This document shows, piece by piece, positions 8,924-21,290 of a DNA stretch of 32,000 nt. Source of the stretch: Anaerolineae bacterium (GTDB lineage: Bacteria > Chloroflexota > Anaerolineae > B4-G1). Location: the NCBI GenBank assembly GCA_046760785.1, contig JBHIET010000027.1:1-32000 (forward strand), read 5' to 3'. Each line of letters starts with the position of its first letter. Within the stretch, counting starts at the first letter, position 1. The position numbers and the translations under genes are program-made. The notes below the pieces were generated by a model. That model was not told where the DNA came from and did no database searches. It saw only the letters and a program-made list of their open reading frames with translations.

Positions 8924-10588
8924 TCAGTCACGCTCAGGCACCTTATATATCCATAGATGACAATCCGGCGAATAAAGGAAAAAGCCTATCAGATCGGCGA
9001 CTAGCTCCGTACCTTCCTCAATAGACTGGAGATTCTCTTTGGTCGTCTGTGTGAGACTGGGGTTTTCCCATGCCCGCTGGCTGATAATCAAGTATTCATA
9101 TCCTTGTTCCTGATAATAGGCCAGGGGGTGGTTCCCCAGACTACCATAACGCCCCACTTGCCAAGGGGGGCTTGGCAAAGGCGGGCCGGTCAGATCAATT
9201 GCGATACGACTATTGATAGGCAAATGCTCCTGGATCCAATTCAGGGCTAACGTTCTGACATCTGGTTGTGTCATTCGCCAATCTCTCTGCAGGACAATGG
9301 CACCCCAGAATATAACCAGAGGAAGAAGCAGTAACGCCAGACCATATTCTTGCCTCACAGGCCGAATCTTTTGGAACCACTCAGACAGCTTTGCCGCCAC
9401 TCGCGCCAAGCCATAAGCAGCAAGCAAAACCAAAATCGGTGCAGTGGGCAACCAGCTACGGTGGTAGCGCGGTATCTGTGTCAGAATGATTATCCAGAAA
9501 AGGGCAGGAGATGCCAGGAGCAAAGCCGTTTCTCTTGGTTTTTCCTTTAATAGGTACCCGACCCCTACCAGAGCCAGAATCGTCGCCGGCATTACCTCCG
9601 TAGTGAACATATACTTGAGCCACCATACATAGGTCGCTTCGAGCGGAAGCTCACCGCCAGGGCGACCGTAAACGCGGATCTGCTTGGCTAGATAGTTCAG
9701 GAACGTTGGAAACTCCGCAAGGACAAACGGCGACCCGATGAGAAAACCGACCAACACAGTCCCCAAAGCCAGAAACAAGTTGTGGTCCAGGAATGAACGT
9801 TCTTTTCTGCCCCTCAGCAAGTGAGCTACTGCCAGGGTTAGAACCGCAGGGAAGGCCGAGTATTTGGTTGAGATGGCCAGTCCCGTGACAAACCCAGCCA
9901 GTGCATAGTATTTCCTCTCGCCGCTCTCGTAGAGCCGGAGAGACAGCAAAACGGCCAGGGTGACGAAGGTGGTCATAGCAGTGTCTGTCGTGGCGAAATG
10001 AGCATTATAGACCAGGGCGGGGCAGAGAGCCAGGAGGAGGCTGGCTACAAGACCCACTTTTTCGCCGAACAGCCGTTTGGCAAGCAGATAAACTATCGGG
10101 ATCAGCGCCATGCCAAACAAAGCCGATACCGAGCGACTGACAATAAAGAGCGTTGGAAAATCGTACGCGCTAATCTCTCTAAAGTTCTCGTAGTACGGGA
10201 TGTCCTGAACCACTTGGAAAACGCCGAGACGTGCGCCGGCCAGGAAATACACAACATAGGTCAGAAACAGCACATAGATGAACACGGACCCATAGTCGAA
10301 CCATCCAGGATTGAAGTTGCCTGTGTGCAGGATCTTCAGGGCGGGCATTACCAGGTAGCCTTCATCGGGGTGGTACAGATATGGCAGCCCAAAGTCGTTC
10401 CCCCACAGGCGTACAAGTCCACCCAAGGCTAGGATCAAGAGTAGCCCCAAAGTTGATGCATTCTTGCTCACATTTGCTTGCGCGGGTGATAGCGCCTTTC
10501 GAATATGCTTTACCATGTAGCTCCAGCTTGCCGGTGCTCGGCAGATTAACAGCACATTGCCGATGGCCAGCAATCTGACCACGACCAT
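8924..10588 (-). CDS. GT-C fold glycosyltransferase, GT39/ArnT/PMT_2-like (polyprenyl-phosphate-sugar dependent)
   Basis: The product is polytopic, with at least 11 hydrophobic segments. The first extracytoplasmic loop carries LYHPDEGYLV (a DE acidic motif, as in ArnT/PMT enzymes), and a soluble C-terminal domain follows. The ATG at 10588 overlaps the upstream stop by 1 nt (TGATG). An alternative ATG at 10516 (MVKHIRK...) has GGAG about 5 nt upstream. Confidence 0.7.
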   Translation of the reverse strand: MVVVRLLAIGNVLLICRAPASWSYMVKHIRKALSPAQANVSKNASTLGLLLILALGGLVRLWGNDFGLPYLYHPDEGYLVMPALKILHTGNFNPGWFDYGSVFIYVLFLTYVVYFLAGARLGVFQVVQDIPYYENFREISAYDFPTLFIVSRSVSALFGMALIPIVYLLAKRLFGEKVGLVASLLLALCPALVYNAHFATTDTAMTTFVTLAVLLSLRLYESGERKYYALAGFVTGLAISTKYSAFPAVLTLAVAHLLRGRKERSFLDHNLFLALGTVLVGFLIGSPFVLAEFPTFLNYLAKQIRVYGRPGGELPLEATYVWWLKYMFTTEVMPATILALVGVGYLLKEKPRETALLLASPALFWIIILTQIPRYHRSWLPTAPILVLLAAYGLARVAAKLSEWFQKIRPVRQEYGLALLLLPLVIFWGAIVLQRDWRMTQPDVRTLALNWIQEHLPINSRIAIDLTGPPLPSPPWQVGRYGSLGNHPLAYYQEQGYEYLIISQRAWENPSLTQTTKENLQSIEEGTELVADLIGFFLYSPDCHLWIYKVPERD

Positions 10589-18749: not shown

Positions 18750-21290
18750 ATGGGGAGATTGGTGGAGAGGCTACGGAGACTGCCGCACGGGGATACTATA
18801 GGCGCATCTCTCCTGCTAATGGCGCTGCTCGTCGTTTTCTTCTGGCGGGCAGTGTTCCTGGGAGAGAGCCTGTTACCGGTGGACTTGATCTACGAACTTG
18901 ATCCCGTCTGGCAGAGCCACGCCCCTCCGGGTTTCACCGCTCCTGGCAATCGCTTGTTATCTGACCAGGTATACATGTTCTATCCCTGGAAGGCCGAGCT
19001 ACGACGCCGCTTCTCCGAACGACAGGTGCCGTTGTGGACCCCCAGTATAAACTGCGGTCAACCGATGATGGGCAACGGCCAGGCCGGAGTTTGGGACCCG
19101 TTCTGGTTATTGGCATCTCTGGTCCCTCTGAACGACTCGTTCTTCGTAGTCGCAGTCCTCAGGCTGTGGGTTGGCGGGGTATCCACGTTTTTGCTGGCAC
19201 GCCAGGTTGGCATTGGGCGCCGTGGTGCGACCCTGGCCATGATTGCGTTTGCCTTCAGCGGCCCGATGATCGTCTGGTTGGGCTACCCGCTGCCCAACGT
19301 GATGGCCTGGTTACCACTCCTGTTGTACCTCAGTGAGCGCGCACTGGCAAAGCAGAGCCTGACCTTGATCGTCCCGATCGGGATTGTGTTGGCCTGGCAG
19401 TTCTTTGGCGGCCATCCTGGAACCTGCTTTCACGTTGTCGTCACCTGGGCTTTCTTCTGCCTTGCACGAGCCATCACGCGCTACCGATGGCAATGGCGTT
19501 CATTGGGCCGGATGCTGGGCGGGATGGCGTTGGCCGGCGCCATTGGGGTATCACTCTCGGCGATACAACTACTGCCGCTGGCCGAAGGAATCCTGAATAG
19601 CTCAACCTTGGTGAACCGTCAGGCTGTCCCGGCGACAGGAGCATCGTTACTGAAGACAATCTCGTTCGCGTGGCACCATTGGCCATCCGCTATCACGACG
19701 CTCCTGCCACAGTTTTTCGGCACTCCAATTGACAACAGCTACTGGTATCCCTATGAGAACTACAACGAACAGACTGCTTACGTGGGTATCGTGCCGTTGG
19801 CATTGGGGATCCTGACTACACTCACGTGGTGGTACAACCGTCGCCGTAAGGAAGCGTCTCCAAATTCGCACGAGGACGCCCCGCAAGCGCTCTTCATTGG
19901 GTGGATATTGCTGGCACTGGGAGTAGCCCTGCAGTTCCCGCTATTCAATATCGTCAATACCTTGCCGGTCGTCGGTTTGATCAATCACGGTCGCGTGCGT
20001 ATGGTGTACGCGCTGGGACTGGCGCTGCTAGCGGGTTATGGTTTAGATATGCTCGCCAGGGTTCCAAACCCGCGCTTTAGCGCCCGCAAGAGATTCCTGT
20101 GCATTCTCGCCGCCTTGGCCATCATCAACTTGCTCTGCGTGGGTCTGGCCTATGTAGGCGTGGCTGCGTTACAGGATCAGATTATCGCTATGGCCAGAAA
20201 CCAGGTCGAGCGGATGAAAGCCATTGACCACCCGCAGTTTCCCTACTCGTTGGAATATTATTATGACAGGGTCAACGCCCGCTATAGACAGATGCGTCAA
20301 TTGTACACCCCGGCCACGCCGCAGATGTTTGTGCCAGTGGGTATGGCGTTAGCTGTCGGCCTGCTAGAATTGAGTCGCCGTCGTGGGGGGAGCCAGAGGA
20401 TATGGCTCGAGGGGTTGGTCCTTCTGACGTGCGCTGATCTGTTCACATTCGGCATGCCAATAAACCCCACGATGGATCGAACCCAGGTCTACCCCACCAC
20501 AGAGGCCCTTGAGTTCTTGCGGCAGCAACCGGGTGTCTTTCGCGTGGGGGGGCTATACCTGGCCTTGATGCCGAACAGCGGTATGGTCTTCGATCTGTCG
20601 GACGTGCGTGGGTGCGATCCCATCGTGCCCTGGCGGCAGGCGAACTTGCTGAATCATATAGAAGGTGCTACTCGTGTGAACCACTACGGCGTGCTCCGCT
20701 CCGCCAGCAGCCACTTGCTTGACCTGATGAATGTCCAATATATGGTTACGGACAGAGAACTGGATGGGCGCTGGGAACTGGTTTTCGAGGAACGTGACAG
20801 CACAATCCGCGTGTACCGTAACCACAATGTCTTGCCACGCGCCTTCATCGTGTATCAGGCAGAATACGCTGCCGGCCCCCACGAGGCGCTGGCCCGCTTG
20901 CTGGAGGACACCTTCGACCCTCGAACAAAGGTGATCTTAGAGGGAGCAACGCCAGGTCTTGTCTCTACTGTCTCGCCAGGAGCCGAACAAGCCCGGATCG
21001 TTCGCTACGAGCCTGAGCGAGTTGTCATTGAAAAAGATACTTCTGCCGACGGGTTCCTGGTACTGACCGACACCTACGCGCCCGGATGGCAGGTGCAAGT
21101 TGACGGGCAGCCGGCCGAACTATATATTGCCGATTATGCATTTCGTGCCGTGCGCGTCCCAGCAGGACGGCACCGCGTCGAGTTTGTTTACGCGCCGTCA
21201 AGTTTTGCTATCGGCGTCGCGCTTAGCCTGGCGGCGGCGGTGTGTTGCATGCTGTGGGGCGCTGTGCTTGTCTACCGCAGGGTGCGATGA
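18750..21290 (+). CDS. YfhO-family polytopic membrane glycosyltransferase (GT-C)
   Basis: The 846-aa product has a polytopic N-terminal two-thirds with an early LPVDLIYELDPVW loop. Its C-terminus, TDTYAPGWQVQVDGQPAELYIADYAFRAVRVPAGRHRVEFVYAPSSF plus a final TM, is characteristic of YfhO proteins. GAGGG lies 9 nt upstream of the ATG. Confidence 0.8.
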   Translation: MGRLVERLRRLPHGDTIGASLLLMALLVVFFWRAVFLGESLLPVDLIYELDPVWQSHAPPGFTAPGNRLLSDQVYMFYPWKAELRRRFSERQVPLWTPSINCGQPMMGNGQAGVWDPFWLLASLVPLNDSFFVVAVLRLWVGGVSTFLLARQVGIGRRGATLAMIAFAFSGPMIVWLGYPLPNVMAWLPLLLYLSERALAKQSLTLIVPIGIVLAWQFFGGHPGTCFHVVVTWAFFCLARAITRYRWQWRSLGRMLGGMALAGAIGVSLSAIQLLPLAEGILNSSTLVNRQAVPATGASLLKTISFAWHHWPSAITTLLPQFFGTPIDNSYWYPYENYNEQTAYVGIVPLALGILTTLTWWYNRRRKEASPNSHEDAPQALFIGWILLALGVALQFPLFNIVNTLPVVGLINHGRVRMVYALGLALLAGYGLDMLARVPNPRFSARKRFLCILAALAIINLLCVGLAYVGVAALQDQIIAMARNQVERMKAIDHPQFPYSLEYYYDRVNARYRQMRQLYTPATPQMFVPVGMALAVGLLELSRRRGGSQRIWLEGLVLLTCADLFTFGMPINPTMDRTQVYPTTEALEFLRQQPGVFRVGGLYLALMPNSGMVFDLSDVRGCDPIVPWRQANLLNHIEGATRVNHYGVLRSASSHLLDLMNVQYMVTDRELDGRWELVFEERDSTIRVYRNHNVLPRAFIVYQAEYAAGPHEALARLLEDTFDPRTKVILEGATPGLVSTVSPGAEQARIVRYEPERVVIEKDTSADGFLVLTDTYAPGWQVQVDGQPAELYIADYAFRAVRVPAGRHRVEFVYAPSSFAIGVALSLAAAVCCMLWGAVLVYRRVR

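Follow-up and report, generated by a model that had tools for sequence, protein, structure and literature searches.

Do four GT-C-type proteins encoded around a single polyprenyl-phosphate-sugar synthase, with no GtrA-like flippase gene among them, form one glycosylation system? This question is raised by a 32-kb stretch of DNA from an Anaerolineae bacterium (positions 1 to 32,000 of contig JBHIET010000027.1, here called the window), the whole of which is an envelope-glycan gene cluster of 23 proteins, as judged by Pfam and NCBIfam profile searches. The original prediction for this locus took the 1:0:4 ratio of synthase, flippase, and GT-C proteins to mean that one lipid-linked sugar donor feeds four distinct acceptors or linkages. 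The count is real, with one synthase, four GT-Cs, and no GtrA, but in related loci the synthase is the dedicated, conserved partner of only one GT-C, a DUF6541 protein. Since this co-occurrence is specific to DUF6541, two of the other GT-Cs belong to a separate module, and the fourth is lineage specific, we think it likely, though far from assured, that the stretch is a junction of separate modules in one large envelope-glycan cluster and that the ratio arises by juxtaposition.

The five genes in question are listed below. An independent gene caller, run on the source contig, agrees with the predicted open reading frames (ORFs), giving products of 554, 832, 321, 505, and 846 amino acids (aa).

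8924..10588, minus strand: PMT_2/GT39-type GT-C of 554 aa (PMT2_554); Pfam PMT_2 and PMT
12570..15068, minus strand: DUF6541 protein of 832 aa, predicted GT-C fold; Pfam, AlphaFold2 (AF2), Foldseek
15065..16030, minus strand: GtrB/DPM1/ArnC-type synthase, GT2, 321 aa; Pfam, NCBIfam, solved homologues
16140..17657, minus strand: protein of 505 aa, predicted GT-C fold; AF2, Foldseek, distant homologues
18750..21290, plus strand: YfhO-family GT-C of 846 aa; Pfam YfhO

The synthase and its GT-C partner

The 321-aa protein matches Pfam Glycos_transf_2 (3e-24) and aligns with the NCBIfam models AglJ (1.7e-32, 3-287/293), ArnC (7-293/316), and PgfS (1-285/308), all under the equivalog cut-offs, and with the PpgS model over its full length. 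Among solved chains, it matches DPMS (1.4e-15), ArnC (4e-15), and GtrB sll0501 (1.9e-8); the alignment is near full length for ArnC and GtrB, and for DPMS covers only the catalytic domain (residues 1-220). Hydropathy shows two C-terminal transmembrane (TM) helices, at 240-258 and 270-288. The other three GT2 proteins of the window lack TM helices, and their matches are to models of the rhamnosyltransferase or HpsE type. Thus, as predicted, there is a single GtrB/DPM1-like synthase in the window, flanked by two GT-C genes and overlapping one of them, with the synthase stop and the DUF6541 start sharing an ATGA. A GtrA domain fused to the synthase was considered and rejected, because the protein has no TM helices beyond the two at its C-terminus and Pfam gives no GtrA match.

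Which GT-C is the partner of this synthase? When one genome per species was scanned, relatives of the DUF6541 protein came up in 453 species representatives, and the best 80 of the 453 loci were taken with 10-kb flanks and annotated using the window's own proteins as references. Nearly all of the 80 are labelled as Chloroflexota-type; 74 hold a full DUF6541 gene, and 64 have enough upstream flank for synthase adjacency to be assessed. By strict criteria, 39 loci have the synthase gene directly upstream of DUF6541 and in the same orientation, and in eight more this adjacency is hidden by over-long ORF calls, for a total of about 47 of the 64. The identical 4-bp overlap is seen in 11 loci. By contrast, near DUF6541 in the 74 loci, PMT2_554 and the 505-aa protein each occur once (1/74), and YfhO does not occur (0/74). 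In many loci, DUF6541 is followed by homologues of the GT4, GT2, and methyltransferase genes that lie downstream of it here. The synthase is, then, the dedicated and conserved partner of DUF6541 only, across Chloroflexota, in a ratio of one synthase to one GT-C, and the proposal that it feeds all four GT-Cs as one system is not supported by the relatives.

The sequences next to this pair in the window are as follows.

10588-11748, minus strand: GT4 glycosyltransferase, downstream of DUF6541; Pfam
11826-12524, minus strand: S-adenosylmethionine (SAM) methyltransferase, downstream of DUF6541; Pfam
16045..16072, minus strand: sigma-70-like promoter match; consensus match

The promoter match, TTGACG-16-TAGAAT with a TG, is a consensus match only; it falls between the 505-aa gene and the synthase, which are 109 bp apart. 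This suggests that the pair may be transcribed on its own from this putative promoter.

Some observations weigh against our assignment. About a quarter of the DUF6541 loci are without an adjacent synthase. Furthermore, in this bacterium as in its close relative L097, the synthase directly follows the 505-aa gene, with both genes in one orientation, and the two may therefore be co-transcribed. By analogy with Ppm1-dependent GT-Cs, YfhO, the 505-aa protein, and PMT2_554 may also share the lipid-phosphate-sugar in trans.

The last point leads to the model of the original prediction, in which one polyprenyl-phosphate sugar is used by all four GT-Cs for four acceptors or linkages, as in mycobacterial mannan and arabinan synthesis. 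This synthase is the only one of the GtrB type in the 32 kb and the readable contig, three of the GT-Cs are on its strand with short gaps, and the profile searches detected no Wzy-type polymerase in the window, which makes extension by GT-Cs on the outer face attractive. The best structural match of DUF6541 is, moreover, the priming arabinosyltransferase AftA. Cases are also known in which several GT-Cs draw on one lipid-sugar donor. The mycobacterial lipoglycan GT-Cs depend on polyprenyl-phosphate mannose (PPM) from Ppm1 (PMC3485146); in Listeria monocytogenes, GttA is needed to galactosylate both wall teichoic acid and lipoteichoic acid (PMC8035078); and a single synthase is encoded together with two YfhO-type GT-Cs in the pgf cluster of Streptococcus mutans (bioRxiv 10.1101/2024.05.05.592596). 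Likewise, the flippase CflA of Lactococcus lactis serves three GT-A/GT-C pairs (PMC8035078). To regard known systems as strictly 1:1:1 was thus too strong a premise, since shared flippases and shared synthases are documented and non-GtrA flippases have been proposed. The Ppm1, GttA, and Pgf cases keep donor sharing by all four GT-Cs in contention here, but we consider it rather unlikely. Co-occurrence with the synthase is limited to DUF6541, the 505-aa/YfhO module is found without a nearby synthase in another locus (L086), the relatives of PMT2_554 are in unrelated contexts, and the composition of the cluster is mosaic.

Assignment of the four GT-C-type proteins

A phmmer search of the four proteins against the sequences of the Protein Data Bank (PDB) gave nothing useful, and the comparison of folds was therefore needed for the GT-C assignment. 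AF2 models were made for the 505-aa and 832-aa proteins; PMT2_554 and the 846-aa protein were classed by Pfam alone. All four have about 8-13 hydrophobic segments by hydropathy. PMT2_554 matches PMT_2 (5.5e-20, 72.6 bits against a cut-off of 26.1) and PMT (4.2e-10, 40 bits against 22.7), and the 846-aa protein matches YfhO (PF09586; 5.5e-25, 88.3 bits against 28.5).

The 832-aa protein matches Pfam DUF6541 (PF20176) over residues 234-795, with an E-value of 1e-12 and 47.6 bits against the gathering cut-off of 29. Its AF2 model is a helical bundle (predicted local distance difference test, pLDDT, 86; predicted TM-score, pTM, 0.87), for which the best Foldseek match in the PDB is AftA (9e-9), followed by STT3, DPY19, PglB, ArnT, and AftD. 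The identity with AftA is about 15%, and the TM-score is about 0.42-0.55. On the basis of this model, DUF6541 is predicted to be a GT-C-fold glycosyltransferase family, an assignment that is new.

For the 505-aa protein, neither Pfam nor NCBIfam gives a match, and the PMT_2 threshold is not reached. Its AF2 model is also a helical bundle (pLDDT 90, pTM 0.91), and all confident Foldseek matches in the PDB (E<=0.02, probability >=0.98) are GT-C proteins: PglB, STT3, ArnT, AglB, DPY19, ALG9, and EmbB. The first six of these have E-values of 1e-5 to 1e-3, a probability of 1.0, and TM-scores of about 0.47. Because none of the confident structural matches is WaaL or SEDS, the identification of this protein as a Wzy polymerase was rejected. 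It had been described as TMTC/PMT_2-like, and distant phmmer links (E 4e-11 to 8e-4) do connect it to TMTC-like proteins composed of PMT_2 and TPR domains, but it has no TPR domain itself and no Pfam PMT_2 match. Both models match GT-C enzymes, which speaks against the concern that the 832-aa and 505-aa proteins might not be glycosyltransferases, and the presence of four GT-C-type proteins is borne out.

The conserved acidic residues expected in the first loop could also be located. They are D42/D43, right after TM1 and near-invariant in the 505-aa family, and D75/E76, after TM1 and near-invariant in the PMT2_554 family. In the 832-aa protein, the loop after the TM helix at 305-326 has D336 and H340, both invariant, and the near-invariant D330. 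YfhO carries D45/E50/D52 after TM1 in its one sequence.

The DUF6541 protein

The N-terminus of the 832-aa protein has a lipobox-like signal (LLTGC), followed by a conserved beta-sandwich at residues ~23-162, which shows a weak likeness in Foldseek to BcsB and to carbohydrate-binding modules (CBM6/36). The loops preceding the TM helix at 305-326 are strongly positive, and by the positive-inside rule, the acidic D336/H340 loop would face outward.

Across the best 80 relatives, which bear the labels of several Chloroflexota lineages, the identity is 38-75%, with 88 invariant columns and an invariant CBM-like domain. Among 1.84 billion representative proteins, a profile search gave 1598 DUF6541 clusters (50% identity) at E<=1e-30, mostly full-length. 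DUF6541 was unmentioned in the literature searched, and so was its pairing with the synthase; the predicted GT-C fold of the family and its dedicated synthase partner across Chloroflexota are the new findings here.

The unusually high conservation of DUF6541 would fit a conserved, possibly essential acceptor. It is tempting to go further and to regard the synthase-DUF6541 pair as the core of a widespread Chloroflexota wall-glycopolymer pathway, similar to the mycobacterial one of AftA, Emb, and Mpt, in which GT-Cs on the outer face draw on one lipid-sugar without GtrA or Wzy and the four GT-Cs here act sequentially on the polymer. We hold this proposal to be doubtful.

Nearby or tandem DUF6541 paralogs occur in several loci, namely L064, with two full copies in tandem, L028, L033, L035, L082, and L088. 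In L088, a divergent DUF6541-like gene directly follows the 505-aa homologue, without a synthase. Some DUF6541 proteins of about 60% identity are labelled as coming from Bathyarchaeia or Methanomethylicaceae metagenome-assembled genomes (MAGs), and others from Pyrinomonadaceae or a delta proteobacterium (hits P0115 and P0117; loci L017, L033, and L035). These labels look like mis-binned Chloroflexota contigs rather than the true distribution of the family. For the window itself, Logan assemblies with lengths of 33.8-37.5 kb encode identical proteins; the closest relatives are Anaerolineae and Anaerolineales MAGs.

The 505-aa/YfhO module

The 505-aa gene is divergent from three genes on the plus strand, GT2b, YfhO, and GT4c, and these four genes are a second, independently conserved module. 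The genes that accompany the two GT-Cs on the plus strand are as follows.

17820..18728, plus strand: GT2b, soluble, 302 aa, rhamnosyltransferase-like; Pfam/NCBIfam
21287..22294, plus strand: GT4c, whose start overlaps the YfhO stop; Pfam
22512-23435, plus strand: GT2c, HpsE-like (4e-15); NCBIfam
23432..24835, plus strand: priming polyprenyl glycosylphosphotransferase of the WcaJ/EPS type; Bac_transf 3e-69, TIGR03025 1e-139

A metagenome scan for relatives of the 505-aa protein gave only 10 loci, mostly short. The divergent arrangement is kept in L086, L088, and L096, and in L090-L092, short contigs that give a partial view, the 505-aa gene is beside GT2b. In L086, the module adjoins a gene for a Wzt-type ATP-binding cassette (ABC) transporter ATPase and dTDP-sugar (rhamnose-type) genes, and there is no GtrB-like gene within 10 kb of it. 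The YfhO protein has about 10-12 TM helices by hydropathy, and its C-terminus shows a weak match to the PgfM1/PgfM2 models, with scores that fall far short of the equivalog cut-offs. We considered GT2b as a synthase without TM helices for YfhO, in the manner of GacI/GacJ, and rejected it, though not absolutely. GT2b has no TM helix and matches rhamnosyltransferase/GlfT-type models, with no match to AglJ, ArnC, PgfS, PpgS, or DPM.

Could these two GT-Cs act on a different kind of donor? The profile searches found no Wzy_C/O-antigen ligase, EpsG, Wzz/PCP, LCP, or WaaL-type match among the 23 window proteins, although the absence of Wzy is not proven, since Wzy proteins are divergent. This lack of a Wzy or ligase raises the possibility that the 505-aa protein, YfhO, or both handle an undecaprenyl-diphosphate (Und-PP)-linked oligosaccharide as polymerase, ligase, or oligosaccharyltransferase, replacing Wzy and the ligase. 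A priming phosphoglycosyltransferase (TIGR03025, 466 bits against a cut-off of 295) and Wzx are present with no Wzy, Wzz, LCP, or WaaL-type match beside them, and the two GT-Cs are co-conserved with the cytoplasmic GT2b and GT4c, not with the synthase. The top matches of the 505-aa model, furthermore, are the oligosaccharyltransferases PglB, STT3, and AglB. We nevertheless consider such a role unlikely. The characterized YfhO-family enzymes use C55-P-monosaccharides (PMC8035078), the GT-C matches rank so closely in Foldseek (TM-score ~0.45-0.50) that the type of donor is not discriminated, and a Wzy is hard to detect and may be elsewhere in the genome.

PMT2_554

PMT2_554 has three close relatives only, with the next at <=44% identity, and the more distant relatives are found in unrelated gene contexts. 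The G+C content at third codon positions (GC3) is 0.54-0.65 for the genes from 138 to 12524, including PMT2_554 with 0.60. In DUF6541 and the synthase it is 0.76-0.79, and the rest of the genes have values of 0.66-0.90. PMT2_554 is thus a lineage-specific insertion, accessory to the cluster, in its low-GC3 part. The step in GC3 at about 12550 is sharp, which suggests that the distal half of the minus-strand block may have been exchanged or acquired. The differences between blocks are consistent with a mosaic origin of the stretch.

The best NCBIfam match of PMT2_554 is the Agl23 subfamily (TIGR03663, 8e-11). This weak likeness is worth noting, because Haloarcula Agl23, when purified and placed in proteoliposomes, moves lipid-linked oligosaccharide across the membrane, and it has been proposed as a hexose-P-dolichol flippase (PMC11182771). 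With this precedent, PMT2_554 might be a flippase or scramblase for the lipid-linked sugar, like archaeal Agl23, and not a transferase. We regard this as very improbable, as the match of 41.5 bits is far under the cut-off of 126.25, and the family retains the DE motif that characterizes catalytic PMT_2 enzymes. Furthermore, the gene is missing from 73 of the 74 DUF6541 loci, and PMT2_554 is therefore not a general flippase of the synthase-DUF6541 pair.

Another possibility is that, for the PMT_2- and YfhO-type GT-Cs, the acceptor is not a polysaccharide and that they O-glycosylate membrane or secreted proteins instead. PMT-type and YfhO-type (PgfM1, PgtC2) GT-Cs are known to modify Ser/Thr-rich disordered regions (bioRxiv 10.1101/2024.05.05.592596), and the window encodes a LysM protein (24937-26451, minus strand) with a signal sequence, two Pro/Thr-rich TPTPTP linkers, an SdrD_B/SpaA-like domain, and a C-terminal membrane anchor. 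From these features, the LysM protein is a possible O-glycosylation substrate or wall-binding protein. In related loci, however, the LysM gene is near no DUF6541 or 505-aa homologue, and we find O-glycosylation of such proteins a quite improbable function for these GT-Cs.

A relative of PMT2_554 with 44% identity is found in a Chloroflexota-type cluster (L098) with at least two GT-Cs, one combining DUF2142 and PMT_2 in 875 aa and the other of the PMT_2 type. The same cluster holds two unannotated proteins of about 640 aa, a radical-SAM/SPASM enzyme, and methyltransferases. In the 80 loci, 48 other large membrane ORFs lie close to DUF6541, with matches, which may overlap, to PMT_2 (10), GT87 (2), DUF2142 (2), and a TMEM260-like protein (1). 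Together with L098, these ORFs make it seem that clusters with several GT-Cs are fairly common in Chloroflexota.

The flippase question

Where is the flippase for the lipid-linked sugar? Among the window ORFs of 60-330 codons, counted from stop to stop, none apart from the synthase resembles a small 3-4-TM membrane protein, none has three strongly hydrophobic segments, and there is no small GtrA/GtcA-like ORF, in agreement with the original prediction. Three other small ORFs have two weak hydrophobic segments, and all of them overlap called genes. Adjacent GtrB- or GtrA-like genes outside the window would have changed the ratio, and none is present on the readable contig ends. On the left side, no GtrA-like gene was found on the contigs read, which end about 100 bp past the last gene. 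On the right side, up to the readable end of the 33.8-kb contig, there is no GtrA-like gene, and what is encoded there is an ABC transporter, a 45-aa product, and a PIN-domain protein. This VapC-like PIN-domain gene (L004:16588-17168), at the contig end a short way past the window, follows the 45-aa ORF, and the two are likely a toxin-antitoxin pair. The 80 related loci gave 10 small multi-TM ORFs, and Pfam identifies none of these as GtrA-like. The earlier statement that the flippase is encoded elsewhere or is non-canonical stands, as an either/or statement.

The only flippase-type protein in the window is the following.

1819..3276, minus strand: Wzx/MOP-family flippase; Polysacc_synt_3 5e-12 (46 bits against a cut-off of 23), Wzx_EPS 6e-20

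Of the related loci, 12 have a MOP flippase near DUF6541, and in 11 its gene is downstream and in the same orientation. In characterized systems, many GT-A/GT-C pairs have an unlinked GtrA-type flippase, and some flippases, such as CflA and GtcA, are shared. In the group A carbohydrate system, the proposed flippase is GacK, of the Wzx type (PMC8035078), and in the GT136 systems it is one of the MATE type (PMC11127046). Given these Wzx- and MATE-type precedents, the window Wzx is a candidate flippase for the lipid-phosphate-sugar. Its obvious primary job is the transport of an Und-PP-glycan, and a dual role is speculative, because Wzx would also be needed for the Und-PP-glycan of the local priming transferase.

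Proposed organization of the cluster

If the stretch is a junction of modules, the translationally coupled synthase and DUF6541 protein would be the first module, a Gtr-like unit for glycosylation on the outer face. From its family, the synthase is expected to move the sugar from a nucleotide sugar to polyprenyl phosphate on the cytoplasmic face. The lipid-linked sugar would then be flipped by a protein that is not GtrA-like, either one encoded elsewhere or one of the MOP type, such as the window Wzx. The fold, topology, and synteny of DUF6541 suggest that, with its AftA/STT3-like core and outward CBM-like domain, it would put the sugar on a conserved outer-face glycan. The downstream GT4, GT2, methyltransferase, and Wzx genes may make and export the acceptor. 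The second module would consist of the 505-aa GT-C divergent from GT2b-YfhO-GT4c, followed by GT2c and the priming phosphoglycosyltransferase, with its two GT-Cs also acting on the outer face. The PMT_2 gene would be a lineage-specific addition in the compositionally distinct, low-GC3 part of the cluster.

Comparison with known systems

The type of system is known, as a multicomponent transmembrane glycosylation, and both the lack of a local flippase and more than one GT-C per synthase have precedents. In Gtr-type systems (GtrA-GtrB-Gtr*, CsbB-GtcA-YfhO, and CsdAB/CD/EF with CflA in L. lactis), as here, a membrane-anchored GT2 synthase adjoins a GT-C; in the window, the two are translationally coupled. 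The predicted outward position of the conserved acidic loop of the GT-C is another likeness, and a local flippase is commonly missing in Gtr-type systems as well (PMC8035078). The present system differs in that the partner is a DUF6541 protein with an N-terminal CBM-like domain, no GtrA-type gene is found among the small multi-TM ORFs of the 80 loci, and the hosts are Chloroflexota.

In the GacI/GacJ/GacK/GacL system of Streptococcus pyogenes and the GT136 systems of Citrobacter, side-chain glycosylation takes place on a polysaccharide built on a lipid carrier, and a MOP flippase is proposed in place of GtrA (PMC8035078, PMC11127046). The window similarly encodes a protein of the Wzx type, in the same strand block, but the cluster has neither a GacJ-like helper nor an ABC-transporter (Wzm/Wzt) pathway. 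The Pgf system of S. mutans (PgfS, PgfE, PgfM1, and PgfM2) has one GT-A synthase with more than one YfhO-type GT-C, and its gene listing names no flippase (bioRxiv 10.1101/2024.05.05.592596). However, Pgf targets proteins, and the window YfhO is neither adjacent to nor co-conserved with the synthase. In Corynebacteriales (Ppm1 and decaprenyl-phosphoryl arabinose, DPA; PimE, MptA/B/C, EmbA/B/C, and AftA-D), one donor serves many outer GT-Cs that work on a core primed in the cytoplasm and built by GT4 and GT2 enzymes (PMC3485146). The best structural match of DUF6541, AftA, belongs to this group. By contrast, the comparative data here back one GT-C only as the synthase partner, and pentofuranose or mannose donors are not indicated.

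The Chloroflexota envelope, notably that of Anaerolineae, is poorly characterized, and the synthase-DUF6541 pair is a testable entry to a conserved envelope glycan of this abundant environmental phylum. The locus also carries a caution, in that genes counted in a mosaic cluster need not form one stoichiometric system.

Other genes in the window

Chloroflexus peptidoglycan carries an O-methyl-sugar polysaccharide, a point that we do not use as evidence. The literature searched held nothing usable on the chemistry of Chloroflexus wall polysaccharides. In all, the window encodes four GT4 proteins, three soluble GT2 proteins, two SAM methyltransferases, and one GDP-fucose-synthase-like reductase. 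The genes at 138-1841 and 7135-8850, both on the minus strand, encode soluble paralogs of about 570 aa from the Phosphodiest (alkaline-phosphatase) superfamily, without TM helices. Phosphodiest homologues recur with Wzx and a methyltransferase downstream of DUF6541 in L057, L058, and L074.

The GT4 protein encoded at 26620-27726, on the plus strand, strongly resembles the cyanobacterial hormogonium-polysaccharide enzyme HpsO over its full length (9e-76, below the cut-off). Together with the HpsE-like GT2c, it hints that part of the cluster may share ancestry with cyanobacterial Hps loci. The gene that directly follows, at 27730-30117 on the plus strand (gene-caller start 27787), encodes a protein of 776-795 aa with about seven TM helices, a spermidine-synthase-like methyltransferase fold, and then about six more TM helices. 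It has no Pfam match and weak speE matches (5e-6), and from its position after the HpsO-like gene, it may belong to the glycan cluster.

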